From positions 384,001-448,000 of the forward strand of contig CAWFJJ010000030.1 in assembly GCA_963816185.1 (NCBI GenBank): 64,000 nt of DNA, written 5' to 3'. The number at the start of each line of letters is the position of its first letter. The first letter of the stretch is position 1. A model generated the notes under the pieces. It was given only the letters and a program-made list of their open reading frames with translations. It made no database searches and was not told where the DNA came from. The DNA comes from Thermoanaerobaculia bacterium. Its GTDB lineage: Bacteria > Acidobacteriota > Thermoanaerobaculia > UBA5066. Positions 13,732 through 31,752 of the stretch are shown here, piece after piece. Both the position numbers and the translations under genes were made by a program.

Positions 13732-13824
13732 ATTCTCTTAGAAGGTGAATGAGCGCACGCCGCTCGAATCGCCGCGCCGCCATGTCGATCTGCCCCGACC
13801 CCACTCACCCTTCTAAGAAATTCT
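13731..13824. repeat. Inverted motif pair (locus D), intergenic
   Basis: GATTCTCTTAGAAGGTGAATGA ... CACTCACCCTTCTAAGAAATTC. Confidence 0.85.
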
Positions 13825-13835
13825 TCTTCCAACAA

Positions 13836-13851
13836 CGGCACGTTCGTTGCG
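13836..13851 (+). promoter_or_regulatory. sigma54 promoter of ku
   Basis: CGGCACGTTCGTTGCG (GG-N10-GC), followed by the SD GGAGGAGG. Confidence 0.75.
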
Positions 13852-13872
13852 AGCAGAAGGGAGGAGGTCTCG

Positions 13873-14737
13873 ATGCGCTCCACGAAGAGAAAACCTCACG
13901 CAGAGAGCGCTTCGCGCACGGCTCGGCGTGCAGTCTGGAAGGGCCGCATCTCGTTCGGGCTCGTGGGGATCCCGGTCGAGCTCGTGCCGGCCGTGGATGC
14001 CAGGGAGCATCTCGGTTTCCACCTCTTGCATCGCAAGGACCTCGCTCCCATCCGATACCGGAAATTCTGCAGCCAGGAAGATGTCGAGGTTTCGGATGAC
14101 GAGGTGGTGCGGGGATACGAGGCGTCGAAGGGGAAGTGGGCTGTCGTGGAGAAGGACGAGCTCGCCGCCGCGCGCACGGACGCGGGAGCGGGCACGGAGG
14201 CACACACGCTCGAGATCCTCTCGTTCCTGGGCACGGGACGCATCGACCCGTTGACGTTCGACCAGCCCTACTACCTCGTCCCGGACGAGGGCGGAGCCCG
14301 GCCCTTTGCCGTCTTTCGCAACGCGCTGGCGGCCTCGGACCGCGTCGGCCTCGGCCGCCTGAGGCTGCGGAGCCGCGAGCATCTGGCGGCTGTGATCGTG
14401 ATCCCGCACGGACTCGTCGCGATTCTGCTCAGGCCGTTCGAGGAAGTTGCCGCGGCGCCGTCGGCGGGGTCTCTGTCCGCGGGAACCGGAGAAATCAAGA
14501 TGGCGCGCCTCCTGATTGACCAGATGTCGGAGGAGGCGCTCGATCCGGCGAAGTACCCCGATCGGTATCGATCGGCGCTCAAGAAGCTGCTCGCCAAGAA
14601 GGGAGCCGTCGCCGGCACCGGCCGCAGCCGAGGGCCAGCCGGAGAAAGAGGGCCGTGTGATCGACTTGATGGAGGCGTTGCGCGCGAGCGTGGCTCGCCG
14701 CGGGGGCAAATCTCCGCGCAAGAGGCACGTCGCATAG
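13873..14737 (+). CDS. ku: Ku non-homologous end-joining protein (frameshift ~14600)
   Basis: RAVWKGRISFGLVGIPV, VVRGYE, FDQPYYLVP, DPAKYPDRYR. The VIDLMEALRASV tail is in ORF 14516..14737. Confidence 0.92.
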
Positions 14738-14767
14738 GGGGCGACCGCGAAAGACACGGGAGGATCT

Positions 14768-14971
14768 ATGGCAGCGAGGAAATCTTCCAGACGGTACGGC
14801 AAGAAGGCGGGGGAGAAAGTGGAGCGCGCGATGCGTGAGATGAAGCAAGGCAAGCTGAAGTCCGGTCGTTCACACAAGACGGTCCGAAGCCGGAAGCAGG
14901 CGATCGCGATCGGGCTTTCCGAGGCGCGCGAGGCGGGCGGGAAGGTCCCGCCCGCCCCGAAGAGCAGCTGA
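14768..14971 (+). CDS. Small basic DUF6496-like protein
   Basis: KVERAMREMKQGKLKSGRS..V.SRKQAIAIGLSEAREAGGKVP; SD GGAGG. Confidence 0.85.
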   Translation: MAARKSSRRYGKKAGEKVERAMREMKQGKLKSGRSHKTVRSRKQAIAIGLSEAREAGGKVPPAPKSS

Positions 14972-14984
14972 CGACCGGGAGGTC

Positions 14985-15578
14985 TCAGCCCTTCTTCTCT
15001 CCGTCGAACGACACCAGGAGGTGCGCGAGGTCGTCCGCGTGCTCCTCCTCCTGGCCGAGAATCCATTCGAACAGGCGCCGCGTCGTGGGGTCGTCCTCGC
15101 CGACGAATGCGATCATCTCCTTGTAGGACTCGATCGCGACGCGTTCGGCCACGAGGTCCTCGCGGATCATGTCCACGAGCGACGCGCCTTCCTGATACTC
15201 CGTCTGACTCTTCGAGAGCAGACCCGCGGGGTTCAGGTCCGGCTCTCCCCCGAGCTGTCGGATCCTCTCCGAGATCCTGTCCGCGTGCGCCTGCTCCTCG
15301 GTCGCGTGCTCGAGGAACTCCGTCTTCACCGGATCGGCGTGAATGCCGTCGGCCATGAAGTAGTGCCTCTTGTAGCGCAGCACGCAGACGATCTCGGTCG
15401 CAAGGGCGACGTTCAGGATCTTCACGACATTCTCGAGGTCGGCGCGATAGCCGGGCGTGACCGCTCCCTCCTCGATCTCGCGTCGTGCGCGCCGTCGCAG
15501 CTCGACGACGTCGCTCAGAAAGGCGGCTTCCGCGATGCTCTTCTTCGGGCCTTCGGCCCGCTTCGCAGCGTGATTCAT
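14985..15578 (-). CDS. Ferritin-like (bacterioferritin/Dps-related) protein
   Basis: LATEIVCVLRYKRH, EEQAHAD, DLVAERVAIESY, EEEHADDL di-iron motifs. Confidence 0.9.
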   Translation of the reverse strand: MNHAAKRAEGPKKSIAEAAFLSDVVELRRRARREIEEGAVTPGYRADLENVVKILNVALATEIVCVLRYKRHYFMADGIHADPVKTEFLEHATEEQAHADRISERIRQLGGEPDLNPAGLLSKSQTEYQEGASLVDMIREDLVAERVAIESYKEMIAFVGEDDPTTRRLFEWILGQEEEHADDLAHLLVSFDGEKKG

Positions 15579-15602
15579 GACAGTCCTCCCCGGTCAACAA
15601 GC

Positions 15603-15618
15603 AGCAACGGATGTGCCA
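15603..15618 (-). promoter_or_regulatory. sigma54 promoter of the ferritin-like gene
   Basis: TGGCACATCCGTTGCT, a consensus match. Confidence 0.85.
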
Positions 15619-15623
15619 CCGAA

Positions 15624-15658
15624 GAAAAGAAAAAGGGGACGTCGGCTACGACGTCCCC
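15624..15658 (-). terminator. Intrinsic terminator
   Basis: GGGGACGTCG-N4-CGACGTCCCC stem (15635-15658) followed on the minus strand by TTTTTCTTTTC. Confidence 0.8.
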
Positions 15659-15689
15659 GACGAAGGAGCGGCGAGAGAGGCTCAGGCTC

Positions 15690-16025
15690 TCAGCTCGTGG
15701 GGTTCACGGTGAGCGTCTTGTTCCCGTTCGCATCCTTCGATTCGGTGATCTTCACCTTGGAGCCGACGGCTACTGCCGGGTCGACGGTGGTGTTCACGGA
15801 CTGAGAGTCGAGATCGAACGAACGCGTCTTCTTTCCGACGAGGACCTTGATCTCCTTCCCGGCCTGGTACTCCTTGACGGTCCCGACGACGATGTGGTCC
15901 TTCGACTTCATCGTGCCCTCCGTCGTCTTCACCTTCTTCTCGTCGGTCCTTTCCATCTGACCGAAGGCGGCCGTTCCGCCGAGGAGAAGGACCGAAACGG
16001 CGGAAGCGAAAAACTTGCGATTCAT
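15690..16025 (-). CDS. Secreted small beta-rich (OB-fold-like) hypothetical protein
   Basis: Signal peptide MNRKFFASAVSVLLLGGTAAFG, SD GGGAGGT, and its own terminator. Confidence 0.8.
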   Translation of the reverse strand: MNRKFFASAVSVLLLGGTAAFGQMERTDEKKVKTTEGTMKSKDHIVVGTVKEYQAGKEIKVLVGKKTRSFDLDSQSVNTTVDPAVAVGSKVKITESKDANGNKTLTVNPTS

Positions 16026-16047
16026 TCTTACCTCCCGAGACTTCGAC

Positions 16048-16063
16048 TGCACCCTCCGTGCCA
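16048..16063 (-). promoter_or_regulatory. sigma54 promoter
   Basis: TGGCACGGAGGGTGCA. Confidence 0.75.
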
Positions 16064-16065
16064 GG

Positions 16066-16683
16066 TCACGCCAGCGCCGACACGTGAACCTGCGCCCGCG
16101 CTGTCTCGAAGCGGTGAGTCGCGAGACCCCAGTCCGCCGCCGCGAGGAAAGCGTCGATGTACTCCGCGCGCTTCGTGCCGTAATCCATCATGAACGCGTG
16201 CTCGAAGACGTCCATCAGGAGCAGCACCGGGCACCCGGCGAGCTGGCCGCGGTCGTGCTCGTCGATCCAGACGTTGAAGAGCCGGCGCGCCTCCGCGTCC
16301 CAGACGAGCGCGGCCCAGCCAATTCCCCGGAGGCTTCCGGTCGCGCGAAACTCCTTCTCCCAGGCATCGTGCGAGCCGAAGTCGCGAGTGATCTGCGCCC
16401 CAAGGCCGGCAGCCTTTTCCAGATTCGTCCGGGTTTTTGTCAGATTTCCAAAGTACATCTCGTGAAGCCGCATCCCGTTCCACTCCCAGCCGAAGCGGCG
16501 CTTGAGCTCGGACCAGTAGGGAGCAGGCGGCTTGCCGGGTGAAGCTGATTCCAGCTCATCGTGAAGGGCGTTTGTGTTCTTCACGTACCCGCGGTAGAGC
16601 TCGAAGTGTTGCGTCAGAAGAGCGTCGCTGAATCCAGGCGTACCGAGGAGCCGCGTGAAATCCTGTGCCGAATAGAGAGCCAT
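16066..16683 (-). CDS. Fe/Mn superoxide dismutase family protein (ChrC-like)
   Basis: HFELYRGYV, NGMRLHEMYF, GIGW, MDVFEHAF. Confidence 0.9.
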   Translation of the reverse strand: MALYSAQDFTRLLGTPGFSDALLTQHFELYRGYVKNTNALHDELESASPGKPPAPYWSELKRRFGWEWNGMRLHEMYFGNLTKTRTNLEKAAGLGAQITRDFGSHDAWEKEFRATGSLRGIGWAALVWDAEARRLFNVWIDEHDRGQLAGCPVLLLMDVFEHAFMMDYGTKRAEYIDAFLAAADWGLATHRFETARAQVHVSALA

Positions 16684-16705
16684 GCCGTCCTCCTTCCCTC
16701 CTCAC

Positions 16706-16741
16706 AGCACGATCCGTTCCATGCGCGGCACGGCTGTTGCT
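16706..16741. promoter_or_regulatory. Back-to-back divergent sigma54 promoters
   Basis: Minus strand TGGAACGGATCGTGCT (16706-16721, SOD) and plus strand CGGCACGGCTGTTGCT (16726-16741), 4 bp apart. Confidence 0.75.
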
Positions 16742-16767
16742 CAATCGAGGAGGAAGGAGGACGCAGC

Positions 16768-16920
16768 ATGCTTTGGACCATTTTCGTCATTCTCCTCGTC
16801 CTGTGGCTTCTCGGGATGGTGACGTCGTACACGATGGGCGGCTTCATCCACATCCTGCTCGTCATCGCGATCGTCGTCGTCCTCATCCGCATCATTCAAG
16901 GCCGACGGCCGGTCCTATGA
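16768..16920 (+). CDS. lmo0937-family (DUF5670) small membrane protein, copy 1
   Basis: MLWTIFVILLVLWLLGMVTSYTMGGFIHILLVIAIVVVLIRIIQGRRPVL; SD GGAGG. Confidence 0.92.
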   Translation: MLWTIFVILLVLWLLGMVTSYTMGGFIHILLVIAIVVVLIRIIQGRRPVL

Positions 16921-16965
16921 ACGCGTGCCGCAGCGCCCCCGAGGCGAGATCACGCGGCGGACGCG

Positions 16966-16981
16966 CGGCACGCCGCTTGAG
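16966..16981 (+). promoter_or_regulatory. Probable sigma54 promoter (GA at -12)
   Basis: CGGCACGCCGCTTGAG, 22 nt before ATG 17004. Confidence 0.5.
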
Positions 16982-17003
16982 TAAGGCCTGAGAGGAGGGG
17001 CTC

Positions 17004-17219
17004 ATGCTTACCTTCCCGTTGCTCTCCGACGTTTACAGTGCGGTCCTGACCGCGACCGAATGTGGAGACTCCGAATCCCAAGGGCAATCCCAAGAGGACG
17101 AGGCACGTGGTCTGAACCCGGCGGACGCGCGTCCGGCCGGGCCAAATCCGCCGGACGACGACGAGGATCTCGAAACGGCGCCGACCCGGCCGCTGCGTCT
17201 CGACCGGCTCCGCCTGTGA
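17004..17219 (+). CDS. Small acidic hypothetical protein
   Basis: 71 aa ORF with SD GAGGAGGGG and an upstream sigma54-like box; no family recognised. Confidence 0.5.
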   Translation: MLTFPLLSDVYSAVLTATECGDSESQGQSQEDEARGLNPADARPAGPNPPDDDEDLETAPTRPLRLDRLRL

Positions 17220-17234
17220 TACCCCGAGGGAGCC

Positions 17235-17250
17235 AGGCACGGCGGTTGCC
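17235..17250 (+). promoter_or_regulatory. sigma54 promoter
   Basis: AGGCACGGCGGTTGCC. Confidence 0.75.
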
Positions 17251-17273
17251 CCGTGCTTGCAGGAGGAAGAAAG

Positions 17274-17426
17274 ATGCTCTGGACCATTTTCGTGATCCTG
17301 CTCGTCCTGTGGCTTCTCGGCATGGTGACGTCGTACACGATCGGGGGCTTCATTCACATCCTGCTCGTCATCGCGATCGTCATCGTCCTCATCCGCATCA
17401 TTCAGGGCCGACGCCCCGTCCTCTGA
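17274..17426 (+). CDS. lmo0937-family small membrane protein, copy 2
   Basis: Not in the ORF track (50 aa). MLWTIFVILLVLWLLGMVTSYTIGGFIHILLVIAIVIVLIRIIQGRRPVL; SD AGGAGG. Confidence 0.92.
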   Translation: MLWTIFVILLVLWLLGMVTSYTIGGFIHILLVIAIVIVLIRIIQGRRPVL

Positions 17427-17574
17427 GCACGCGCGTCAAATGCGAGACCCGTCCCCCATCACTCATTCTCTGACCTCGCCGACCGCGCGGGCATGGCTGA
17501 ATTGCGAGGGTGATCCGTTCTCAGGCCACCGGGGTGCCCTTCCTCGTCGAACCATCCGGCGAACGTGACCCTTT

Positions 17575-17949
17575 TCAGGGCGACGGGTGCTGAGGACGGC
17601 AGTGCTCGCCCACGGTCGCGAGCAGCCGAACGGGGTCGACCGGCTTTCGCAGCCAGCCGACGGCCCCGATCTCTCTGGCGTCGTCCGCCGCCCGGGCATC
17701 TGCCGTACACACGACGATGGGAATCGACGCGAGGGCTTCGTCCTTGACCTGCTCTTTCCGAAACTGCCAGCCGTTCATTCCGGGCATGGTCATGTCGAGA
17801 AGAATGACGCTCGTCCTCTCGCCCGAGCGGAGCTCTGCGAGCGCCGACCGGCCGTCCGGCACGTGGACAGCCCGGTACCCCTCGCTTTCGAGGAGGCTCG
17901 CGAGCGCCTGCGCGATCGCTTCGTCGTCTTCGACGATGAGAATCTTCAC
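17575..17949 (-). CDS. Single-domain response regulator
   Basis: GTGA overlap; KILIVEDD, ILLDMTMPGMNG, VCTA, LRKP. Confidence 0.9.
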   Translation of the reverse strand: MKILIVEDDEAIAQALASLLESEGYRAVHVPDGRSALAELRSGERTSVILLDMTMPGMNGWQFRKEQVKDEALASIPIVVCTADARAADDAREIGAVGWLRKPVDPVRLLATVGEHCRPQHPSP

Positions 17950-19733
17950 TTCACCTCTCCCGTTCGTCTCGGCAGGGCGACCTGAAACATGGCCCCGGCG
18001 CCCGGACGACTTTCGACACCGATCCGCCCCCCGTGCGCCTCGACGATCTCGCGCGTGATCCACAGCCCGAGGCCCATCCCCGGGTAGGTCTCGCGCGAAA
18101 CGGCGCGCTCGAACCTTCCGAAGATCCGACGCTGGTCCGCGTCGTGGATTCCGATCCCGTGGTCCCTGACGAAAACGAAGGCCTCGTCTCCGACGGACGT
18201 CACGCGGACCTCGACCGGCTCGCCGGCGCCGAACTTCAACGCGTTCGTGAGGAGGTTCGAGAAAACCTGCTCCAGCCGGAGGCGATCCCAGAACCCGCTC
18301 ACGCTGCCCGGCGCGTCGACCACGAGTTTGCAACCGGCGCGCCGGGCGCTCTCCTCGAGCCGTTCCACGAGGTCGCGGGCGAGGAGCGCGAGATCCATCT
18401 CCTCGGGGTCGAGGTGCAGGCTGCCCGCCGAGATACGCGAAACGTCCAGCAGCTCGTCGGCGAGCCGGATGAGCCGGGCGACCTGCTTCTCGCAACGCGA
18501 CGCCAGGTCGACCGCCTTCTCGTTCCCGAGCGCCCGGACCTGCCGCGCGAGCTGGTAGACGATCAGGTTCAGGGCCGACAGCGGAGTCCGGATCTCGTGA
18601 CCGGCAACGGAGAGAAAGGCGTCGCGCGCCTTCACGGCGTCACGCGCCTCTTCGTAGAGGCGGTTGCGCTCGGTCTCCAGCCGCTTGAGCTCCGAGAGGT
18701 CCACGACGAAGGACGCGCGCACGGGGACGTGTCCGCCCAGGTCCACGTTCGTCGAGCCGAAAAGGACGGGGACGCGCGTCCCGTCGGTCCGCAGGAGCTC
18801 CTTCTGGTAGGGAGGGCAGGTGCCGGTCTCGCGCAGCGCCTTGTCACAGTTCTCGTCGAGCTCCTTGTACTCGGGCGCCGTGAAGCCGAAGAGTCGATGT
18901 TCGTGCGGCCTCCAGTTTTCGCGGTCGATCCCCACGATCGACAGAAACGCGCCGTTCGCGTCCGTGACGTGCCCGTCGTCCGAGAACAGGACGCCGATCA
19001 GGTTCGCGTCAATGAGGCGTCGGATGCGCGCCTCGCGTTCACGGATCGCCGCCTCGGCGCTGTTGCGCCGTGCGAGGTCGGCGCGGATGAGATACCAGAT
19101 GAGGATCAGGAAGCCGAACAGGAGGCCGCAGCCGATCCCGAGCGTCGTCAAGAGGGTCCGTGCCGTCTCGCTCGAGCGCCGGTCGCGGACCGCGAGAAGC
19201 GCTCGCTCTTCGGCCTTCATCTCGGTGATGAGCTGCCGAATCGCGTCCATCGACCTCTTCCCGACCCCGGTTTTCAGGTACGCGCGCGCCTCGTCTTCAT
19301 GGCCACGCTGCGCCATCTCGATCGTCCGGCTCATCTCGAGGAGCCGGTCTTCCGTCAGGTATCGAAGCTGCGAGGCGCGCGTCCGCTGCGCGGGGCTGTC
19401 GGCCGTGAGCGCGGCGATACGCTCGAGCCGCCGCGGAAGCTCGGAGACGGCGGCCCGGTAGGGGTCGAGGTACGAGTCCGAGCCCGTCAGGAGGAAACCC
19501 CTCTGGCTCGCCTCGCCGTCCTTGATGGCGGAGAACGCCCCCTCGAGCTCGCCGATGACGTCCTTGGTATGGTCCACGAGGCGGGCGTCCTCGATCAGAC
19601 GCGACGTGTTCACCCAGGTCACGGAAACGAGCAGCACGAGAGCCCCGAACGTCACGGCGATGGCGGCCGCGAGACGGGTGTCCATCCCGTGCGGCCGCCA
19701 CCGCGCGCCACTTCCTGTCGTTTCAACGCCCAT
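17946..19733 (-). CDS. CHASE3-PAS sensor histidine kinase
   Basis: TM-CHASE3 (DGEASQRGFLLTG)-TM, PAS, HEIRTPL, NLLTNALKF, DHGIGI, GMGLGL. The start could be 19685. Confidence 0.93.
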   Translation of the reverse strand: MGVETTGSGARWRPHGMDTRLAAAIAVTFGALVLLVSVTWVNTSRLIEDARLVDHTKDVIGELEGAFSAIKDGEASQRGFLLTGSDSYLDPYRAAVSELPRRLERIAALTADSPAQRTRASQLRYLTEDRLLEMSRTIEMAQRGHEDEARAYLKTGVGKRSMDAIRQLITEMKAEERALLAVRDRRSSETARTLLTTLGIGCGLLFGFLILIWYLIRADLARRNSAEAAIREREARIRRLIDANLIGVLFSDDGHVTDANGAFLSIVGIDRENWRPHEHRLFGFTAPEYKELDENCDKALRETGTCPPYQKELLRTDGTRVPVLFGSTNVDLGGHVPVRASFVVDLSELKRLETERNRLYEEARDAVKARDAFLSVAGHEIRTPLSALNLIVYQLARQVRALGNEKAVDLASRCEKQVARLIRLADELLDVSRISAGSLHLDPEEMDLALLARDLVERLEESARRAGCKLVVDAPGSVSGFWDRLRLEQVFSNLLTNALKFGAGEPVEVRVTSVGDEAFVFVRDHGIGIHDADQRRIFGRFERAVSRETYPGMGLGLWITREIVEAHGGRIGVESRPGAGAMFQVALPRRTGEVK

Positions 19734-19743
19734 CGCAGAAATT

Positions 19744-20769
19744 TCAGGCCGCGGCGTAGCCGCCCTGGGGAACCGCTTTCGGCCCGCGCTCGGAGCGGAT
19801 CGTCCGACTGAACAGCGAGAGCTTGCGGTCGAAGACGAAGCGCAGCAGCAGTCGAGTCCACGAGCGGTGGGACGAGAGGGCGTCGTACACCTCGGGCACG
19901 GCGCGTCGAACGGCCGGCAGCCGGTTCCACGGAACGGACGGAAAGTCGTGGTGCTCGTTATGGTGGCCGACGTTGAGCGCGATGATGTTCAGCGGCCCGT
20001 AGTAGCTCGACGTCTCCTGCCCTTCGAACACGAGGTAGTGCTCCTGGATCCAGCGCGCTCCGAGCGGGTGCAGGCCGACGGAGAAGAAGAACGAAACTGC
20101 GAGGTAGAGGAAAGCCTTCGGCCCGAGCAGCGTCCACACGGCGACGTCGTAGGCGATTTGCGCGGCGACGTTCGCGAACACCCAGGGCCCGAGGAGAGGG
20201 ATCTCGCCGAGGCGCGGCGGGCGCGTGAGCTGAAAGATCGGAAAAAGGAGGAGCCAGAGCGCTTTTCTGAGCGCGGAGTGTCCGACGAGCCGCGCTTCCC
20301 AGCGGCTCGGGATGTCCGCGTCCAGCTCGTAGACGCCCTGAAACGCGTGGTGCTTCAGGTGGTACGTCTGGAACGAGATCGCGCTCGGCAGGACGTGCGG
20401 GAAATTCGCGACGATCGCGGCGATCCGGTTCCAGGGCGCGCGCCGGAACACGAGATTGTGAGAGCACTCGTGGATGAGCACCCAGAGGGTGTGATCCAGA
20501 AAAGCGCCGACGAGGAACGCGGCGGCGAGCGCGGCCCAGACCGGCACGCGAAACATGAGCCCCGCGAGAAAGGTTTGCAACAGGACGAGACCGATCACGA
20601 GAAGAGCGCTCCACGCATTTCGTCCGGCGAGCGACCGGATCTCCGCGTGCCGACGGAGAATCTCGCGGGCCCGGAGTGCGTGCGGCTCACGCTCGTTGGA
20701 GAAGAGGAAATCCTCTTGCTCGGGCGTCTGGGTCGCCGGGATGGTCGTCGGCTCCGGAAGGAATGTCAC
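19744..20769 (-). CDS. Membrane desaturase, sphingolipid delta(4)-desaturase (DEGS/DES1)-like
   Basis: N-terminal EPHALRAREILRRH; His boxes HECSH, HLKHH, HNEHHDFP; GLHPLGARWIQEHY; SYYGPLN. GTG 20769 with SD GGAG. Confidence 0.85.
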   Translation of the reverse strand: MTFLPEPTTIPATQTPEQEDFLFSNEREPHALRAREILRRHAEIRSLAGRNAWSALLVIGLVLLQTFLAGLMFRVPVWAALAAAFLVGAFLDHTLWVLIHECSHNLVFRRAPWNRIAAIVANFPHVLPSAISFQTYHLKHHAFQGVYELDADIPSRWEARLVGHSALRKALWLLLFPIFQLTRPPRLGEIPLLGPWVFANVAAQIAYDVAVWTLLGPKAFLYLAVSFFFSVGLHPLGARWIQEHYLVFEGQETSSYYGPLNIIALNVGHHNEHHDFPSVPWNRLPAVRRAVPEVYDALSSHRSWTRLLLRFVFDRKLSLFSRTIRSERGPKAVPQGGYAAA

Positions 20770-20845
20770 GAATCTCCAACGAGTATCGCCGATTCCCTTT
20801 CCGGATTGAAACTTTTCCAATCTCGAAGCGCTCCGGAGGCCGCGG

Positions 20846-20886
20846 CGCAATGTCGATGCCCGCCCGGACGTGGCGTAGAGCTTGCG
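20846..20886. promoter_or_regulatory. Back-to-back divergent sigma54 promoters
   Basis: Minus strand GGGCATCGACATTGCG (20846-20861, desaturase operon) and plus strand TGGCGTAGAGCTTGCG (20871-20886, glucan synthase). Confidence 0.65.
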
Positions 20887-20899
20887 ACGGACCGAAGGG

Positions 20900-23800: not shown

Positions 23801-26800
23801 GGGCGCGAGGCGCTCTCGGCCGGCGACCGGGACTTCCTCCTCAGCACGGCGCGGAAGACGTGGCGGTACTTCGAGGAGCTCGTGCAGGAGGACGCGAACG
23901 GCCTCGCTCCGGACAATCTCGCCGTATCGCGGGACGGGGGCTCTCCGCTGATCGCGCCGCGCACCTCCCCCACGAACATCGGCCTCGCGCTTCTCGCGGA
24001 CCTCGCCGCTCACGACTTCGGCTGGCTCGAGACGGACGCCCTCCTCGCGCGACTCGACCGGACGCTCCGCACCGTCGAGGGCCTCGAGCGCTGGAGAGGG
24101 CATCTTCTCAACTGGTACGACACGCGGACTCTCGAGCCGCACGAGCCGCGATACGTCTCGACGGTCGACAGCGGCAATTTCGCTGCGTGCCTCCTCGTGC
24201 TCGCCCAGGGGCTTCGCGAGATGCGGGCCGACGGCGATCTCTTGCGGGCGCAGGATCTCGCGCGGCGCGCCCGGTCTCTGGCCGACGTAATGGACTTTCG
24301 CCCGCTCTACGACGCCTCGCGCGGGCTTTTCGTGACCGGATGCCGCCCCGGCGTCCACGACACCGTGAAGCGCGACGAGACGTTCTACGACCTTCTCGCC
24401 TCGGAGGCGCGCCTCGCGAGCTTCCTGGCCATCGCCAAGGGCGACGTGCCTCAGAGCCACTGGTTCCGGCTCGGCAGACTCGCCGTGACCCTCCACGGGA
24501 TTCCGACGCTCCTGTCGTGGAGCGGCTCGATGTTCGAGTACCTCATGCCGCTCCTCTTCACGCGGACGTACCCGCAAACTCTTCTCGACGCGTCGTGCCG
24601 CATGGCGATCCGGCGCCAGGAGGAGTGGGGGCGCGCGCACGGCGTGCCGTGGGGAGCTTCCGAATCGGCATATCGCGTCACGGACCTCGTGGGCGAGCAC
24701 CAGTACCGGGCCTTCGGCGTCCCCGGCCTCGGCTTTCGCCGGGGCCTCGACGAAGACCTCGTCGTGGCGCCTTACGCGTCCGCTCTCGCCGCGCTTCTCG
24801 CGCCCGCCAAGGCGGTGAAGAACCTGCGCGCCTTCGCGGCGGCGGGAGCAGAAGGCCCATGGGGCTTCTGGGACGCGCTCGACTACACGGAGGGAGACGC
24901 GCCTGCCGAGCCGGACGCTCTCCCGCGCACCACGGATGGGCGCGGCGTCATCGTGCGCACGGCTTTCGCACACCACGAGGGAATGAGCCTCGTCGCGTTC
25001 GCGAATGTTCTCCTCGGCGACGTAATGGTGAGGCGCTTTCACGCGGATCCGCGGGTGCGCGCCACCGAGCTCCTCCTCCAGGAGCGCCCGCCCCGCGAAG
25101 CGCCGGTGCCTCAGCCGCGCCCCACGGAAGACGAAGTGCTTCCGCTGCCGGCGTCGCCGGCCGCGGCTCCGCGCCTTCTGCGCTCTCCGCACCAGCCTTT
25201 CCCGGTCACGCAGTACCTGTCCAACGGCACGCTCGTCTCGGCAATCACGCAGGCAGGTGGAGGTGCGAGCTTCTGGCGCGGTCTGTCGGTGGCCCGCCAC
25301 CGCGAGGACCCGACCTCGGATCCGGTCTCCAACGCTCTCTATCTCCGCGACGTGCGAAGCGGCGCCGTCTGGTCCGCCACGTTCGCGCCCACGCGGCGCG
25401 AGCCCGAGCTCTATCGGGCGACGTTCCTTCCCGAGCTCGCCTCGTTCCGGCGGCGCGACGCGGAGATCGAGTCGTTGCTCGAGGTCGCGGTGTCGCCAGA
25501 AGACGACGTCGAGGTCCGCCGCCTGACGCTCACGAACCTCAGCGACACGACACGCGAGATCGAGGCCACGAGCGCCGTCGAGATCGCGCTCGCCAAGCCG
25601 CAGGACGACGTCGCGCATCCCGCCTTCGGGAAGCTCTTCCTCGAGACCGAGGCGGTCCCCGCGGACGCGGCGCTTCTCTGCACCCGGCGCCCGCGGACGG
25701 CAGGCGAGAAGCCGCTCTTTGCGGTCCACGTCCTCGCGGCCGCGGCACGCGTGCAGGGGCCTCTCGAGTGGGAAACCGACCGTGTGCGCTTCTTCGGGCG
25801 AGGGCGCGACGCGTCGGACCCGGAGGCGATGGAGCGCCGGGCGCTCTCGGGAACGACCGGGACGGTGCTCGAGCCGATCCTCAGCCTGAGGCAGCGCGTG
25901 CGACTTGCGCCGGGCGCGATCGCGCGTTTGACGTTCACGACGGGCGTCGCGGACACGCGCGGGGCCGCGCTCGCCCTCGCGCAGAAGTATCACGACCCGT
26001 CCGCGGCGGTGCGCGCCTTCGCGCTCGCGCGGACTCACGCGCAGGTCGCGGTCCGGCATCTCGGGCTGACGCCGGAGGAGGCGCACCTCTTCGAAAGGCT
26101 CGCGTCGAGAGTCCTCGGCTCGGATCGCACGCTCGCCGCGCCTCCCGCCGTGCACGAGGCGAACACGCTCGACGTGTCGGCTCTCTGGCGCCGCGGGATC
26201 TCGGGCGACCTGCCCCTCCTCGCCGTGCGCATCGAGCGCGCCCAGGATCTCGCTTTGGCGCGACAGGCGCTCGAAGCACAGGAATACTGGCGGCTCAAAG
26301 GCCTCGTGGCGGACCTGATCCTGCTGAACGAGCACGAGGAGGGGTACCGCAAGGAGCTTCACGACCTTCTCACCCTTCTTGTCGAGCGCGGCCCCTGGGC
26401 TTCACGCGCCGGCAAGAGCGGCGGGGTCTTCCTCCTCAGAGCGGATCTCCTGAGCCCGGACGATCACCGCGCGCTCCTCGCATATGCGCGCGCGGTCCTC
26501 CGCGGGGAGGACGGCAGCCTCGCGATGCAGCTCGACCGCGCCGCGCCCTTTGTGCCGGAAGCGCCCCCGCCCCCCGCCGCCCGCCCGCGGGCCGTTCTGG
26601 AGGCAGAAAGGCCGCCGTCCGGGCTGAAGATGGCAAACGGCTTCGGGGGGTTCGGAGAGGGCGGCCGCACGTACGAGATCGTGCTCGAGGGAGCCCGCGA
26701 GACGCCTCTCCCCTGGACGAACGTTCTCGCGAACCCCCGCTTCGGCTCCCTCGTGACGGCCTCCGGCGCCGCGACGACCTGGTCCGAGAACAGCCGCGAG

Positions 26801-29488
26801 AACCGTCTCACGCCTTTCGCGAACGACCCGGTGAGCGACCCGCTGCCGGAGGCCGTCTTCGTTCGAGACGAGGAGACCGCCGACGTCTTCGGTGCGACAC
26901 CGGGAGTCCGCCCGCGGGAGAAGGAGGGCCTCTGGCTCGTGACGCACGAGGCGGGCCTGTCGCGGTTCCGGCGGAGGACGGCCGGAATCGTGCGCACGTT
27001 CGAGACCTTCGTCGCCCATGAGGACCCGGTCAAGCTGATGCTCCTCACGCTCGAGAACACCTCGGGCAGGTCCCGCCGCCTCTCCGTCTTCGCGTACGCC
27101 GAATGGGCTCTCGGTCCGCCGCGCCCGGAGGCGCCGCGGCACGTCGTCACGTCCGTGGCGCCCGACCTCCGCGCGATCCTCGCGCGCAATCCAGCGAGCG
27201 TGGATTTCAAGACGCGCGTCGCGTTCCTCGCCTCGAGCGAGCCCCTCGTCTCGTTCACCGCGGATCGCCGCGAGTTCCTGGGCTCTTTCCGGAACGTTCG
27301 CGCGGCGGCGGGCCCGCACTGCGCGCGGCTCTCGGGCCGGACAGGCGGAGGTCTCGACCCCTGCGCGGCCCTGCACGTCGCCGTGGCGCTCGAGCCGGGC
27401 GAGTCCCGCACGCTCGTGTTCCTCCTCGGCCAGGGGCGGGACGACGAGGAAGTGCGGAGTCTCGCGGCACGCTTCTCGCCGCCGAGCGAGGCCGCGAAAG
27501 AGAAGGAGCGCGTGAAGGCCGCGTGGGATGAGACGCTCGAGGCGCTCGTCGTCGAAACCCCCGACGACTCGCTCGATCTTCTCGTGAACCGATGGCTCCC
27601 CTGCCAGGCGATCGCCTCCCGCCTCTTCGGACGCACGGGTTACTACCAGCCCGGCGGCGCCTGGGGCTTTCGGGACCAGCTGCAGGACGTTTCCTCGCTC
27701 GTCCTCATAAGGCCCGATCTCGCGCGCGAGCACCTCCTGCGGGCTGCTCGACGACAGTTCCGCGAGGGCGACGTGCAGCACTGGTGGCACGAACCTTCCG
27801 GGCGGGGAACGCGCACGCGCTGCTCGGATGACCTGCTCTGGCTCCCCTGGGCGGCCCTGCGGTACGTCGACGTCACGGCGGACGCCTCCGTGTGGGACGA
27901 GAAGACCCCTTATCTTGAGGCCCCTCTCCTCGCCGAAGGCCAGCGGGAGTCGTACCTCGAGCCCGCCGTCTCGTCCGAGACCGACACGCTCTTCTCTCAC
28001 GCCGCGCGCGCCATCGACGCCGCGCTCACGGCAGGCGCGCAGGGCCTCCCGCTGATCGGCGCGGGGGACTGGAACGACGCCATGAACGAGATCGGCCCTG
28101 AGGGCCGAGGCGAAAGCGTCTGGCTGGGCTTCTTTCTCCATTCCGTGCTCGTCCCGTTCGCCGCGCTCTGCGAGAGACGCGGAGACGCCGCCCGCGCCGC
28201 GCGCTACCGGAACGAGGCCGAACGGCTGCGGCACGCGCTCGACCTCGCGTGGGACGGCGAGTGGTATCGGCGCGGGACGTTCGACGACGGGTCCCCGATC
28301 GGATCCCGGCGGAACGTGGACGGACAGATCGACTCGATCGCCCAGTCGTGGGCGGTGCTCTCCGGCGTGGCGCCGGCCGCCCGCGCAGAGCGGGCGCTCG
28401 ACGCCGTGCGGTCTCGCCTCGTCAGACGCGACGCCGAGATCGTCACGCTGCTCGCGCCGCCGTTCGACCGCGGTCCGGAGGATCCCGGCTACATCAAAGG
28501 CTATCCGCCGGGGATTCGCGAGAACGGGGGCCAGTACACGCACGCCGCCGCGTGGGTCGTCATGGCGGCGGCCGCGCTGGGCTCCGCCGACGAGGCGCTC
28601 GAGCTCTTTCACATGCTCAATCCGGTGAACCACACGCGCACCGAGGCGGCCGTGATGCGTTATGGGGGCGAGCCGTACGTCGTGGCGGGAGACGTGTCGG
28701 CCCACCCCGCCCATCTCGGACGCGCCGGCTGGACCTGGTACACCGGCTCGGCGGGCTGGCTTTACCGCATCGCCACGGAAAGCCTTCTCGGCCTTTACCT
28801 TCGAGGCGCCGAGCTGATTCTCGATCCCCGCATTCCGTCGACGTGGCCTTCCTACTCGGTCTCTCTTCGCGTCGGCGGCACACGCTGGAAGATCCGGATC
28901 GAGAACCCGGACGGAAAGACCAGCGGCGTTCGGGGCCTTCGAGTCGACGGGAGGGAGCTGCCGGGAAACGTCGTGCCCCTCCTCGATGACGGAGGCGTTC
29001 ACGAGGTCAGGGGCGTCCTCGGCGGCACGATCACGGCGCGTGAGCGGGCGACCGCCTCACCCGCGCGCACCCGTCCGCCGTCCGAGCAGCCCGGGGCGCG
29101 CGAGAACGTGCCGGCACAAGCGCAGCCGGACGTTCTCGTCGTGGACGACGACCGCGCGCTGCGCGACGGCATCCTCCGTCTTCTCGACGACGAGGGATTC
29201 AGCGGGATCGGAGCCGAGGATGGTCTCGAGGCGCTCCAGCACCTGGACGCGGGCCTTCGTCCCCGCCTCGTCCTCGTGGACCTCGAGATGCCGCGGATGA
29301 ACGGCTGGTCGTTCGTGAGGAGGATCGAGGAGCAGCCTGCGCTCGCTTCGCTTCCCGTCGTCGTGATGTCCGGCATCGCGACTCCGGGATTCGCGCCGGC
29401 CCGGCGGAACGACGCGGGCTTCCTCAAGAAGCCGCTCGCGCCCGCGGAGCTCCTCCGGGTGACCCGCCGGTACGCGTCCGGGCGATGA
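20900..29488 (+). CDS. Cyclic beta-1,2-glucan synthase (GT84 + GH94, NdvB/Cgs-type) with C-terminal receiver domain
   Basis: WLLDNFH, WMGWERKRGKL, TLDSDT, LLSHDLFEG, RWVRGDWQ, TSPTNIG, YVSTVDSGN, YDLLASEARL, GFRDQLQD, GDWND, GIRENGGQYTH, WYTGSAGW; then REC (VVDDD, VDLEMPRMNG, KKP). Confidence 0.93.
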   Translation: MLGERRRGPLGEFLPLERLEERARALGAAWTVAPRGGGRHVLSRLDENLPVLRRAYRVLASDVRAGEAVTPAVAWLLDNFHLLEAEVRGARHDLPRAYNRKLPRLVGAEHGGAARIEALAWDIVAQSDARLDAIWLERFLAAFQTVTPLTLAELWAWPSFLRAALVDHLRVLSDDLLEIRAERLRADALLARDPSARPLLPDPPPPAFATRVLQRAREYGASAGGLVAALADRLGATGQTLEDAVRAENQRQAALQVSIANAVSALRLCETLDWGQFVERVSLVDEALRYDPGGVYGRMDFSTRDRYRHAIEKLAPRSGEDQVRVARRAAARAREAPPEAGPRVAHVGWFLVGPGRPEFEKDVGQRRGPIARIRRSFFRHAAPLYLGCIFVLTAAGLVAVSAYARAAGVAPGVEMWAFALAALPISEIAVFLVQRFVDALIPPRRLPRLDFSTGVPESARTLVVFPTLFEGVAAVEPMLRHLEVQALANPDLHVHFALLSDFADAVDATRPDDDAILAAASRGIAALNAAHGTERFFLFHRVRRWNASEGLWMGWERKRGKLEELNRLLRGATDTSFGLQVGDLSILPSVRYVLTLDSDTRLPRDTARTLVGILEHPLNRPRLDPAIRRVTEGYGILQPRVSIATTSAASSRFARVFSGHTGVDPYTTAVSDTYQDLFGEGVFAGKGLYDVDAFQTALEGRVPENSLLSHDLFEGLYARTALVTDVEVVDDYPSNVLAHARRQHRWVRGDWQILRWLLPLVPTRLGLERNRLPLIAQWKILDNLRRSLLPPALLALFAAGLTLLPGNPLVWVLLASSVLALPLVGVLRSLAAGPRPQQPSLSFVRELFGDLETAAAQTLVGFAFLPHYAFESVHAIVLTLVRLVVTGRRLLEWETFAKAAARAAGLLAAGGPRSFFVEMASSPLAAALLALLVAAMRPSALPLAAPLLVLWALSPILAWWLSHAAPFGREALSAGDRDFLLSTARKTWRYFEELVQEDANGLAPDNLAVSRDGGSPLIAPRTSPTNIGLALLADLAAHDFGWLETDALLARLDRTLRTVEGLERWRGHLLNWYDTRTLEPHEPRYVSTVDSGNFAACLLVLAQGLREMRADGDLLRAQDLARRARSLADVMDFRPLYDASRGLFVTGCRPGVHDTVKRDETFYDLLASEARLASFLAIAKGDVPQSHWFRLGRLAVTLHGIPTLLSWSGSMFEYLMPLLFTRTYPQTLLDASCRMAIRRQEEWGRAHGVPWGASESAYRVTDLVGEHQYRAFGVPGLGFRRGLDEDLVVAPYASALAALLAPAKAVKNLRAFAAAGAEGPWGFWDALDYTEGDAPAEPDALPRTTDGRGVIVRTAFAHHEGMSLVAFANVLLGDVMVRRFHADPRVRATELLLQERPPREAPVPQPRPTEDEVLPLPASPAAAPRLLRSPHQPFPVTQYLSNGTLVSAITQAGGGASFWRGLSVARHREDPTSDPVSNALYLRDVRSGAVWSATFAPTRREPELYRATFLPELASFRRRDAEIESLLEVAVSPEDDVEVRRLTLTNLSDTTREIEATSAVEIALAKPQDDVAHPAFGKLFLETEAVPADAALLCTRRPRTAGEKPLFAVHVLAAAARVQGPLEWETDRVRFFGRGRDASDPEAMERRALSGTTGTVLEPILSLRQRVRLAPGAIARLTFTTGVADTRGAALALAQKYHDPSAAVRAFALARTHAQVAVRHLGLTPEEAHLFERLASRVLGSDRTLAAPPAVHEANTLDVSALWRRGISGDLPLLAVRIERAQDLALARQALEAQEYWRLKGLVADLILLNEHEEGYRKELHDLLTLLVERGPWASRAGKSGGVFLLRADLLSPDDHRALLAYARAVLRGEDGSLAMQLDRAAPFVPEAPPPPAARPRAVLEAERPPSGLKMANGFGGFGEGGRTYEIVLEGARETPLPWTNVLANPRFGSLVTASGAATTWSENSRENRLTPFANDPVSDPLPEAVFVRDEETADVFGATPGVRPREKEGLWLVTHEAGLSRFRRRTAGIVRTFETFVAHEDPVKLMLLTLENTSGRSRRLSVFAYAEWALGPPRPEAPRHVVTSVAPDLRAILARNPASVDFKTRVAFLASSEPLVSFTADRREFLGSFRNVRAAAGPHCARLSGRTGGGLDPCAALHVAVALEPGESRTLVFLLGQGRDDEEVRSLAARFSPPSEAAKEKERVKAAWDETLEALVVETPDDSLDLLVNRWLPCQAIASRLFGRTGYYQPGGAWGFRDQLQDVSSLVLIRPDLAREHLLRAARRQFREGDVQHWWHEPSGRGTRTRCSDDLLWLPWAALRYVDVTADASVWDEKTPYLEAPLLAEGQRESYLEPAVSSETDTLFSHAARAIDAALTAGAQGLPLIGAGDWNDAMNEIGPEGRGESVWLGFFLHSVLVPFAALCERRGDAARAARYRNEAERLRHALDLAWDGEWYRRGTFDDGSPIGSRRNVDGQIDSIAQSWAVLSGVAPAARAERALDAVRSRLVRRDAEIVTLLAPPFDRGPEDPGYIKGYPPGIRENGGQYTHAAAWVVMAAAALGSADEALELFHMLNPVNHTRTEAAVMRYGGEPYVVAGDVSAHPAHLGRAGWTWYTGSAGWLYRIATESLLGLYLRGAELILDPRIPSTWPSYSVSLRVGGTRWKIRIENPDGKTSGVRGLRVDGRELPGNVVPLLDDGGVHEVRGVLGGTITARERATASPARTRPPSEQPGARENVPAQAQPDVLVVDDDRALRDGILRLLDDEGFSGIGAEDGLEALQHLDAGLRPRLVLVDLEMPRMNGWSFVRRIEEQPALASLPVVVMSGIATPGFAPARRNDAGFLKKPLAPAELLRVTRRYASGR

Positions 29489-29515
29489 TTCGAGGCGCCG
29501 CCGGGCGCGCGGGCC

Positions 29516-30982
29516 TCAGGGCTCGAGCTTGTATTGCTTGATCTTGTTGTAGACGGTCTTGAGGCTCACGCGGAGGATCTCGGCGGCCTTCTTCTTGTTG
29601 CCTGAGACGGCCGCCAGCGTGCGCTCGAGAAGACGGCGCTCGACGTCCTCGAGCGAGTCCCCCACGCGGACCGGCACGCGGAGAGGATCGTCCGGCGCGG
29701 GCTGCTCGACGGCGCGGTTCGCCGCCGAGCCTTCGGCGGCCGCGGCGGACGGCTCGGTGGGAGGCCGTGGCGAGGCCGGCGCGGGCGGGCGCACGGCGGC
29801 GAATACCCCGCTCGCGCGGCCGGCGAGAACCCCAGCCACGATCGATTCGTCCACGACCCCGTCGTCCGAGAGCACGTACGCGCGGTGGACGACGTTTCGA
29901 AGCTCGCGCACGTTGCCGGGCCACGGGTGCGCGGCCAGCTTCTCGAGCGCGGCGGCCGAGAAGTTCCGACGTCCTCCCTCCTCGCTCTCGGCGACGAGGT
30001 CGAGGAAGTGTTTGGCGAGCACGGGGACGTCCTCGCGGCGTTCGCGCAGGGGCACGATGTGCAGCGGGAAGACGTTGAGGCGGTAATACAGGTCCTCCCG
30101 GAGCGTCTTCTTCTCGACGGCCTCGAGAAGATCGCGGTTCGAGCTCGAGATGACGCGAACGTCGCACCCGATCTCGTCGTTGCCTCCGACCCGACGGAAC
30201 GAGCGCGTCTCGAGCACGCGCAGGAACTTGACCTGCAGGTCGGCGGACATCTCGGTAATCTCGTCGAGAAAAAGCGTGCCGCCGTGGGCGAGCTCGAAAT
30301 ACCCGGCGCGGCGCTTGTCGGCCCCGGTGAAGGCGCCTTTCTCGTGCCCGAAAAGCTCGCTCTCGATCAGGTTCGCCGCGACCGCGCCGCAGTTGATCGC
30401 CACGAGCGGCTTCTCGCGCCGGCGCGAAAGCGAGTGGATCGTCTGTGCCGCCGCTTCCTTGCCGCTGCCGCTCTCGCCCGTGATCATGACGGGCGCATCC
30501 GAGCGCGCGATTCGCGCGATGACCGCGCACGTCTCGCGCATGGCGTTCGAGACGCCGACCATCGCCCCGAAGTGTCCGGTCTCGTCCAGGGTCTTCCACA
30601 GGGCGGCATCGCCGTCCTGAGAAGGACCCCCGGGCCGTAGGCGCTCGAGCACGGCTTCGAGCTGCACGGGACGAAGAGGCTTGACGAGATAGTCGAAGGC
30701 GCCTGCCTTCATCGCCTCGACCGCCGTGTCGAGCGATCCGTGGCCCGTCAGGACGACGATCTCCCGGCGAGGATCCGCGGCGCGGGCATCGCGGATGAAA
30801 TCGATGCCGTCCCCGTCGGGAAGCTGGAGATCGGTGAGACAGACGTCCGGATCGAACGACGCGAGAGCCGCGCGCCCCTCCGCGAGCGTCGACGCGGCTT
30901 TCACGTCGAGATCGAACTCCTCGAGGAGCATCTGAACTCCCTTTCGGGTCTCGGAGTCGTCTTCGACGACGAGGATCTTCAT
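29516..30982 (-). CDS. NtrC-family sigma54-dependent response regulator
   Basis: REC (TDLQLPDGDG), GESGSGKE, ELFGHEKGAFTGA, LFLDEI, WPGNVREL, C-terminal Fis HTH. Confidence 0.95.
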   Translation of the reverse strand: MKILVVEDDSETRKGVQMLLEEFDLDVKAASTLAEGRAALASFDPDVCLTDLQLPDGDGIDFIRDARAADPRREIVVLTGHGSLDTAVEAMKAGAFDYLVKPLRPVQLEAVLERLRPGGPSQDGDAALWKTLDETGHFGAMVGVSNAMRETCAVIARIARSDAPVMITGESGSGKEAAAQTIHSLSRRREKPLVAINCGAVAANLIESELFGHEKGAFTGADKRRAGYFELAHGGTLFLDEITEMSADLQVKFLRVLETRSFRRVGGNDEIGCDVRVISSSNRDLLEAVEKKTLREDLYYRLNVFPLHIVPLRERREDVPVLAKHFLDLVAESEEGGRRNFSAAALEKLAAHPWPGNVRELRNVVHRAYVLSDDGVVDESIVAGVLAGRASGVFAAVRPPAPASPRPPTEPSAAAAEGSAANRAVEQPAPDDPLRVPVRVGDSLEDVERRLLERTLAAVSGNKKKAAEILRVSLKTVYNKIKQYKLEP

Positions 30983-31659
30983 CGGCCCACCATCGGCAGG
31001 GATCCTGTCACGGTCAGGTGCGTTTCGTCCTCTTTGCCCTCCAGCCGGCCCCCGTGCGCCTCGAAGGTCCAGCGCGCGAGAAACGGGCCGAGCCCCGCAT
31101 TCGGGCGGCTGCGCGTCTTGAACAGCATCTCGCCGGGCGCTCCGCGCGCGAGCGGGACGCGAAACGAAAACGATACCGTTCCATCGTGCAGGTGCGTCTC
31201 GAGCTGCGCCTCCCCGGCCGCGGCCCAGCGCGACGCGGTCAGGAGCGCCTCCTGAGTCGCGGCCTCGAGCTCATCCTCGAACCCGTCCACGAACGCACCC
31301 TCCGAGGGCCCGACGCTGCGCAGCCTCAGGCCCCGCTGCTCGAGCTCCGGCACGCGTGCCCGAGCCGCGCGCGCCACGAGCGCCGCGAAATCCAGGAGGC
31401 CGGGGTCTCCCTCGTGGGCGCTTCCGAGCGCCGTGAGGCCGTCGAGAAGCCGGGAGGCCTCTTCGAGCTGCTCTTTCCCCGTCTCGAGGCCGGCGCGAAG
31501 CTTCTCAGGGATCGCCTCCTCGGCGCGGGCGGCGGCGCGCCGCGCGACCTCCAGGTGGAGAGCAGCGGCCGAAAGAGGAGTCGCAAATTCGTGACGCAGC
31601 GCACGGCATGCCCGAAGCGTGGCTCCCAGCCTATGCTGTTCGAAGGTCTCACGCACCAT
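30979..31659 (-). CDS. Sensor-less histidine-kinase-like protein with degenerate ATPase domain
   Basis: H-box LRHEFATPL and G2-like GLGPFLARWTFEAHGGRL, but no N-box Asn or DxGxG. ATG 31659 is chosen because it lies downstream of the promoter. Confidence 0.75.
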   Translation of the reverse strand: MVRETFEQHRLGATLRACRALRHEFATPLSAAALHLEVARRAAARAEEAIPEKLRAGLETGKEQLEEASRLLDGLTALGSAHEGDPGLLDFAALVARAARARVPELEQRGLRLRSVGPSEGAFVDGFEDELEAATQEALLTASRWAAAGEAQLETHLHDGTVSFSFRVPLARGAPGEMLFKTRSRPNAGLGPFLARWTFEAHGGRLEGKEDETHLTVTGSLPMVGR

Positions 31660-31704
31660 GACGGCTCTTTTCTGGGCCTGGAAAACGCATGTAAACATCC
31701 AAAT

Positions 31705-31720
31705 AGCAATGCTGGGGCCA
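31705..31720 (-). promoter_or_regulatory. sigma54 promoter of the kinase-like/NtrC operon
   Basis: TGGCCCCAGCATTGCT in an AT-rich context. Confidence 0.7.
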
Positions 31721-31752
31721 TCGTAAATATTACGGAGGACCCGAAGGAGAGT

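Follow-up and report, generated by a model that had tools for sequence, protein, structure and literature searches.

The textbook general stress responses, RpoS, SigB and EcfG–NepR–PhyR, depend on alternative factors of the sigma-70 family. The roles usually assigned to sigma-54 concern nitrogen, motility, the cell exterior or single damage operons, and stress systems that use it (PspF–psp, RtcR–rtcBA, NorR and ZraR) each serve a single stress through one or two operons and a defined upstream site. FlgR of Helicobacter and Campylobacter and CtcC of Chlamydia are sigma-54 activators that lack a DNA-binding domain, and each is the only or nearly the only activator in its genome. Here, we report an island of small protective genes in Thermoanaerobaculia bacterium, in which sigma-54-type -24/-12 boxes stand in front of genes for Ku, a ferritin-like protein, superoxide dismutase (SOD) and small membrane proteins, and which also encodes an NtrC-family activator. 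The island lies at positions 13836–31720 of the window, by which we mean the whole 64-kb stretch that was analysed (G000:C30:384001-448000); the genome, G000, is a 5.09-Mb metagenome-assembled genome (MAG) in 30 contigs, and the closest public loci carry titles of Thermoanaerobaculia or Acidobacteriota MAGs. A search of sequencing runs for positions 13700-17500 listed six, all of soil-metagenome DNA, with no RNA run among them. Judging from sequence comparison, we consider it fairly probable that this bacterium has a sigma-54-dependent protective regulon of which the island is one hub.

The gene set resembles that of the RpoS, SigB and EcfG responses, comprising Dps/ferritin, SODs, BON/OsmY-like, glycine-zipper/OsmB-like, Ku and small membrane proteins, with trehalose genes in a sister family. 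The predicted control differs, being by sigma-54 and an ATPase activator rather than by sigma competition or partner switching. The PspF, RtcR, NorR and ZraR systems share with the island -24/-12 promoters and an AAA+ activator for damage or envelope-stress genes; unlike in those systems, a dozen or more separate small genes of general-stress type each have their own promoter in G000. In Borrelia, as far as the part of the source consulted goes, the Rrp2–RpoN–RpoS pathway likewise places sigma-54 and a receiver–AAA+ activator atop a global adaptive response, but there through one promoter (rpoS), whereas in G000 the boxes lie directly on effector genes. The nearest analogue that we found is the Nla28 network of Myxococcus xanthus. 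According to the portion of the report drawn on here (PMC9765219), Nla28 directly regulates genes for enhancer-binding proteins, including its own promoter, and many survival sigma-54 promoters with 'defence-related' targets; its binding sites are tandem 8-bp repeats, and the promoters that it targets are mostly intragenic. To that extent the two systems share an NtrC-like activator and, as predicted for G000, survival sigma-54 promoters and an activator gene that is itself a target. The phylum and the cargo are different, however, and in G000 no repeat or site was found and the promoters lie 22–27 nt before start codons.

In the main text of open-access papers, we came across no account of a sigma-54 stress regulon for Acidobacteria or Thermoanaerobaculia and no mention of DUF5670; the terms 'Acidobacteria' and 'superoxide' are absent from the portion of Francke et al. 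(2011; PMC3162934) that was consulted. An abundant uncultured soil lineage of Acidobacteriota appears to have put Ku, ferritin, SODs, BON and small membrane stress proteins directly under sigma-54, and part of its stress defence may run via an ATP-driven activator instead of a dedicated stress sigma factor. If true, this would be a different design, with zero basal expression and all-or-none activation that is paid for in ATP and gated by phosphorylation, and it would offer function-linked handles on DUF5670, DUF6496 and the small secreted protein of the island.

Boxes were scored by their mismatches to the consensus TGGCAC-N5-TTGC, and the genome scan demanded both the GG and the GC. All ten boxes named in the initial annotation were located, and eight of them are confirmed. 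On the forward strand, CGGCACGTTCGTTGC (13836..13850, one mismatch) lies 22 nt 5' of the Ku start, and CGGCACGGCTGTTGC (16726..16740, one mismatch) and AGGCACGGCGGTTGC (17235..17249, one mismatch) lie 27 and 24 nt 5' of the first and second copies of DUF5670, respectively. On the reverse strand, the perfect box TGGCACATCCGTTGC (15604..15618, no mismatches), which is immediately preceded by a terminator-like hairpin, lies 25 nt 5' of the ferritin start, and TGGCACGGAGGGTGC (16049..16063, one mismatch) lies 23 nt 5' of the start of the secreted-protein gene. The weaker box TGGAACGGATCGTGC (16707..16721, reverse strand, two mismatches), 23 nt 5' of the SOD start, stands back-to-back with CGGCACGGCTGTTGC in the 84-bp spacer between SOD and DUF5670. 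The last two of the eight are TGGCGTAGAGCTTGC (20871..20885, forward strand, two mismatches), upstream of a glucan synthase gene, and TGGCCCCAGCATTGC (31706..31720, reverse strand, one mismatch), upstream of an operon of a mini histidine kinase and the activator. Two boxes are rejected: GGGCATCGACATTGC (20847..20861, reverse strand, two mismatches), upstream of a desaturase–kinase–receiver operon, is not conserved, and the box-like CGGCACGCCGCTTGA (16966..16980, forward strand, two mismatches) ends in TTGA and has no -12 GC. The box observation is confirmed in part.

The GG-N10-GC spacing is exact in nine of the ten named boxes; six have at most one mismatch, and all six are intergenic. Each of the seven boxes in the core of the island, at 13.8–17.3 kb, is followed by an ATG after 22–27 nt, with a GGAGG-type Shine–Dalgarno sequence in every case; at so short a distance, the 5' end of the mRNA would fall just before the Shine–Dalgarno sequence. 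In the whole window there are seven matches with zero or one mismatch, six of them intergenic and inside the island. A comparison with the rest of the genome, as the initial annotation had proposed, showed the boxes to be far denser in the island. Genome-wide, 113 hits have at most one mismatch, and 78 of the 113 are intergenic, against 15.3% of intergenic DNA according to our own crude codon-usage gene caller (4200 genes, 85% coverage). The island holds six good boxes (at most one mismatch) versus 0.40 expected (P=3.9e-6). Its 3.5-kb core holds five versus 0.077 expected (P=2.1e-8), a density that no other 5-kb cluster of the 5.09-Mb genome reaches. A good box within 150 nt upstream is found for 50 of the 4200 called genes genome-wide versus six of the 12 called island genes, and among the 52 one-mismatch intergenic boxes of the genome, 15 lie at the modal box-to-start distance of 20–31 nt. 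The absence of rpoN had been named as a refuting observation; the gene is intact, with the AID, CBD and DBD domains all present. These data support the boxes as sigma-54-type promoters, and we infer transcription from them.

Conservation in related genomes, likewise suggested as a check, points in the same direction: six genomes of the genus have boxes ahead of the same genes, while the spacers and flanks around the boxes diverge. The ferritin ortholog was found in 40 of the 41 relatives searched. The ferritin operon is boxed (at most one mismatch) in all six genus genomes, in four of which the box lies farther upstream, before an extra small open reading frame (ORF); G011 and G003 (about 90% identity) retain the perfect box, though the flanks differ. 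Ku is boxed in both of two genus genomes (G011 and G003), also with diverged flanks; the secreted-protein gene is boxed with at most one mismatch in all five genus genomes with an ortholog (G011, G003, G001, G019 and G021), and so is DUF5670 in the five genus stretches that hold it. In the spacer between SOD and DUF5670, both boxes are kept in six of six aligned genus genomes, the weak SOD box being identical in four. The box of the activator operon is conserved as well, in that TGGCCCCGNCRTTGC precedes this operon in eight of the eight genomes read. Across the class, 28 DUF5670 loci were scanned over 120 nt, including L167 and L178 from unpublished genomes: nine have a box with at most one mismatch, six a box with two mismatches and 13 none, and in several of these 13 the gene stands directly behind another ORF.

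The island had been described as self-contained, and this part of the description did not hold. The rpoN gene sits on contig C28, boxed stress-type genes are scattered over the genome, and a second, larger box cluster with a paralogous activator is found on contig C24. This cluster (C24:563-586 kb, eight boxes) is the densest 20-kb box cluster in the genome. It includes a BON gene with a third DUF5670 behind it, an AI-2E transporter and DUF6600, an operon whose last gene is Transgly_assoc, a zinc-type alcohol dehydrogenase, a glyoxalase, a 26-amino-acid (aa) membrane ORF and, behind two small genes, the paralogous activator. Elsewhere, boxes precede genes for Cu/Zn SOD, MscS, a second BON protein, CBS, glycine-zipper, thioredoxin-like and Pyr_redox proteins, and the boxed AI-2E transporters of the genome number two. 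The gene content is typical of general stress regulons, with Ku, ferritin/Dps-like, two SODs, BON, MscS, CBS, glycine-zipper, Transgly_assoc and DUF5670. What stands of the proposed sigma-54 stress regulon is a set of conserved sigma-54 promoters on stress-type genes; its self-containment, the desaturase box and a one-to-one link to the island activator are not supported.

The activator of the island (29516..30982, reverse strand) has the architecture REC–AAA+–HTH_8 by Pfam and, as had been noted, an intact GAFTGA motif. Its paralog on C24 has GSFTGA; the two are 52% identical (BLASTP), and both keep HTH_8. NCBIfam equivalogs with curated cut-offs were used for naming, and no named equivalog (NtrC, AtoC, ZraR, LuxO, FlbD, PspF, RtcR or NorR) reaches its cut-off for either activator, the best match being TIGR01818 with 391 bits against a cut-off of 558.6. 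The mini histidine-kinase-like protein of the operon (30979..31698, reverse strand) is sensor-less, with the H-box RHEFATPLS, a G2-like motif and a weak HisKA match (E=3e-4). Its likely start is the ATG at 31659-31661, and the gene call begins at 31659. A profile of seven orthologs aligns weakly to the DHp and CA cores of kinases in the PDB (E about 0.01), and the counterpart in G029 passes the HATPase_c cut-off. Two sequence elements accompany the promoter of this operon: a conserved GTAA-N3-TTAC palindrome abuts its -24 element (window 31721-31740), and some 14 nt past the box there is a conserved CATGCGA. Each is a possible operator or binding site of a bending protein.

Orthologs of the island activator (at least 76% identity) occur in 17 of the 28 other genomes of the genus; seven have the C24-type activator only (55–58% identity), and four have neither type (E up to 1e-100). 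The operon of the C24-type activator is preceded by a TGGCAYG...RTGC box in six of nine genomes. In the order, a DUF5670 gene is found no more than 8 kb from the best activator homolog in 23 of 25 genomes (family f1, 6/8; f2, 14/14; f3, 3/3), or in 21 of 23 if the unpublished G025 and G030 are left out; outside the order, the count is 0/6. In G027, G031 and G040, the activator and DUF5670 are about 100 nt apart, with a box between them. Islands of sister families around the activator contain Ku, otsBA, BON, DUF6496, the LigD primase-polymerase, a boxed CHASE3 hybrid kinase and SOD. Conversely, G014 (98% complete) and G022 (96%) are without both activator paralogs, the ferritin ortholog and DUF5670. 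The sister-family orthologs of the activator are short, at 413–428 aa, and consist of REC, AAA+ and lid without HTH_8 in all four examined (L194 7126-8367, L195 6368-7654, L196 8490-9764 and L197 11716-12975). Such activators may act without an enhancer. Here, the likeness to FlgR and CtcC is that these orthologs also lack the DNA-binding domain, as would suit promoters with no space for an upstream site; unlike in those systems, both G000 paralogs keep HTH_8 and the genome has 35 activator loci, counted as strong Sigma54_activat places.

From these observations, the following scheme can be proposed. Each small gene or operon of the island (Ku–DUF6496, the ferritin-like protein, the secreted protein, Fe/Mn SOD and the two DUF5670 copies) would have its own compact -24/-12 promoter, on which sigma-54 holoenzyme would wait in the closed state until a phosphorylated NtrC-type receiver–AAA+ activator remodels it. 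The best candidate for this activator is one subfamily with two paralogs, in the island and on C24, each of which would share a transcript, started at its own sigma-54 promoter, with a sensor-less mini histidine kinase, resulting in feedback or cross-activation. A CHASE3-PAS kinase with a stand-alone receiver is likely to provide a second input. The island would then be one of two hubs of a wider regulon that is probably run by one activator subfamily. The assignment of an activator to the boxes, and of stress, desiccation or dormancy as the trigger, is inferred. A broader proposal, which we put forward tentatively and hold to be somewhat short of an even chance, is that throughout the order a general-stress and desiccation set stands directly under sigma-54 and is controlled by one receiver–AAA+ subfamily with its mini-kinase. 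The set meant here consists of Ku/LigD, trehalose synthesis, Dps-like ferritin, SODs, BON, DUF5670, DUF6496 and mechanosensitive channels. Activators of sister families, having no DNA-binding domain, may act enhancer-free, and the control would be ATP-gated, with a tight off-state and no sigma competition.

Several results weigh against a single protective regulon. The first concern the activator. The initial annotation had implied a one-to-one link between the boxes and the island activator; nevertheless, 11 of the 28 genus genomes have no ortholog of it, and two of these, G001 (99% complete) and G019, keep boxes, so that the island activator cannot be the sole activator. A scan for 4-mer dyads (gaps 0–14) in 22 promoters yielded no shared upstream activator site after multiple-test correction, and a scan for 7-mers in 25 promoters yielded none that was enriched after correction, both methods being crude; GCAC-N4-TGCC, the highest-ranked dyad, is probably due to adjacent boxes on the opposite strand. 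With no shared site, nothing ties the promoters to one activator among the 35 activator loci. The second concern the co-occurrence counts, which come from related genomes and therefore overstate independence; moreover, activator and cargo can be lost jointly through physical linkage, without a regulatory tie. The third concern coverage. All three DUF5670 genes of the genome are boxed, but only two of four BON genes and one of two Transgly_assoc genes are. The LigD primase-polymerase homolog (C28:327062) has no box within 2.5 kb, and none of 80 more distant ferritin-homolog loci has a good box in the roughly 130 nt searched upstream, a scan that is blind to operon promoters beyond that distance. 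Finally, the label 'stress' is drawn from gene families only, and a conventional stress sigma factor beside sigma-54 is possible: the genome has two additional, unclassified sigma-70-family factors with region 3, none of which reaches the RpoS, RpoH or SigB cut-off. With these two factors present, the claim that the genome is without a conventional stress sigma was dropped.

It is conceivable, if on balance unlikely, that the sigma-54 promoters are real but are served by several unrelated activators for different signals, so that the island would be a neighbourhood rather than one regulon or a general stress response. Such an arrangement would agree with the 35 activator loci, with the lack of a common upstream site and with the persistence of boxes where the island activator is absent. 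The promoter of the activator operon (TGGCCC..., with the GTAA-N3-TTAC palindrome) is also unlike those of the cargo (CGGCACG...), and boxes precede genes of sulfur metabolism, porin genes and protease genes in addition to those of stress type. What speaks for one subfamily instead is its linkage to DUF5670 and stress genes, which has survived rearrangements in 23 of the 25 genomes of the order, the uniform box-to-start architecture, and the joint absence of cargo and both paralogs from G014 and G022.

A developmental or resting-stage programme, comparable to the cascades of enhancer-binding proteins in Myxococcus and distinct from an acute stress response, appears improbable to us. The cargo would suit long-term survival (Ku, Dps-like ferritin, SODs and, in sister families, trehalose genes), the LigD primase-polymerase is boxless in G000 and boxed in sister family f2, and the activator operons are themselves predicted to be sigma-54 dependent, which gives a cascade-like layout; the Nla28 network is such a case in the part of its description cited above (PMC9765219). 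The stretches examined showed no genes for sporulation or cysts, however. That the boxes are chance matches or the sites of another DNA-binding protein is strongly disfavoured: the count of matches with up to two mismatches over the whole window is not unusual (44 versus 33.6 +/- 5.7 in shuffles, with 6 of 100 shuffles reaching 44) and two of the ten named boxes fail (20847 and 16966), but the density in the core (P=2e-8), the intergenic enrichment, the fixed orientation and distance to start codons, the conservation across genomes while flanks diverge, the exact GG-N10-GC spacing and the intact rpoN all speak against it.

A sigma-54-dependent protective regulon with the island as one hub thus remains the reading we prefer, and the identities assigned to its genes (Ku, ferritin, SOD and lmo0937/DUF5670) agree with Pfam. 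Ku, the end-binding protein of non-homologous end-joining, is encoded at 13873..14838 on the forward strand (Ku, E=1e-33), followed on the same strand by the small basic protein DUF6496 (14768..14971, E=7e-23), which overlaps the Ku 3' end by 71 nt and, having no box of its own, would be co-transcribed with Ku. The overlap (14768-14838) is in another frame, and the alignment with the Ku orthologs of G011 and G003 covers no more than about 242 residues; the tail of the Ku ORF may therefore be spurious. The following three genes are on the reverse strand. The first encodes the ferritin-like or Dps-like protein of 197 aa (14985..15578, Ferritin, E=9e-28), which is matched by NCBIfam DpsA models with scores under their cut-offs. 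The second encodes the small secreted protein of 111 aa (15690..16025), with a signal peptide recognized by eye and no Pfam family, and the third encodes the Fe/Mn SOD (16066..16683, Sod_Fe_C, E=2e-22). Paralogs of the secreted protein also stand behind boxes at C24:528944 and C25:198840 (40% and about 26% identity), and together these look like a small family of boxed secreted proteins. On the forward strand, the lmo0937-like DUF5670 copies lie at 16768..16920 (copy 1, a 50-aa membrane protein, E=6e-16) and 17274..17426 (copy 2, E=4e-15).

Between the two copies, an ORF of 71 aa (17004-17219, forward strand, no Pfam family) stands behind the box-like match at 16966; it has no tblastn match in the stretches of relatives, and the match, having no -12 GC, is probably non-functional. 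Beyond copy 2, the reverse strand encodes, by Pfam, the stand-alone receiver protein (17575..17985, Response_reg), the CHASE3-PAS histidine kinase (17946..19733) and a fatty-acid or sphingolipid-type desaturase (19744..20850), and in G000 the gap from desaturase to kinase and receiver is 10 nt. The 20847 box was rejected as the promoter of this operon, as there is no box in G011 or G004 and a conserved sigma-70-like block, GAAAAGTTTCA...GATACT, stands there instead. Three genomes have this AT-rich block upstream of the desaturase (window 20770-20830; L142 2830-2900; L147 15480-15560), and it is likely to be a sigma-70-type promoter. In G011, G019 and G021, a paralog of the secreted protein stands ahead of the kinase and receiver, and in G011 and G021 this paralog has a box with at most one mismatch before it.

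The GH94 cyclic beta-1,2-glucan synthase (20882..29488, forward strand, Pfam) may have a weak promoter in its box at 20871, of which TGGCGTGGAGCTTGC is kept in G011, the sole relative checked. The synthase ends in a receiver domain (residues 2751-2859), which is also found at the end of the G011 ortholog and suggests that glucan synthesis may be phospho-regulated by an island kinase.

Other observations concern loci outside the island. On contig C5, boxes at C5:181149 and C5:184225 precede a sulfite-reductase-like gene and the gene for the beta subunit of APS reductase. A 111-aa tail-anchored protein (C24:441207) resembles ElaB/DUF883 by eye; this label was rejected, as Pfam DUF883 finds nothing in the genome. 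For the OtsA and OtsB proteins of the sister family, there is no tblastn hit in G000 at E below 1e-10. In the C24 cluster, at G000:C24:576904-577030, a one-mismatch box is followed by a ribosome site and the 26-aa hydrophobic ORF, which the gene caller had missed. The first gene of the C24 activator operon encodes a ferritin-like protein of 145 aa (DUF2383-like, a weak match). Its ORF starts 12–14 nt after the box in six genomes (G000:C24:586114-586128; L206, L207, L209, L211 and L213), and at this distance an mRNA from the sigma-54 promoter could be leaderless. In G019, seven more boxes with at most one mismatch occur in the 8 kb beyond the ferritin gene (L064 11640-19819), along with a DUF6496 gene.

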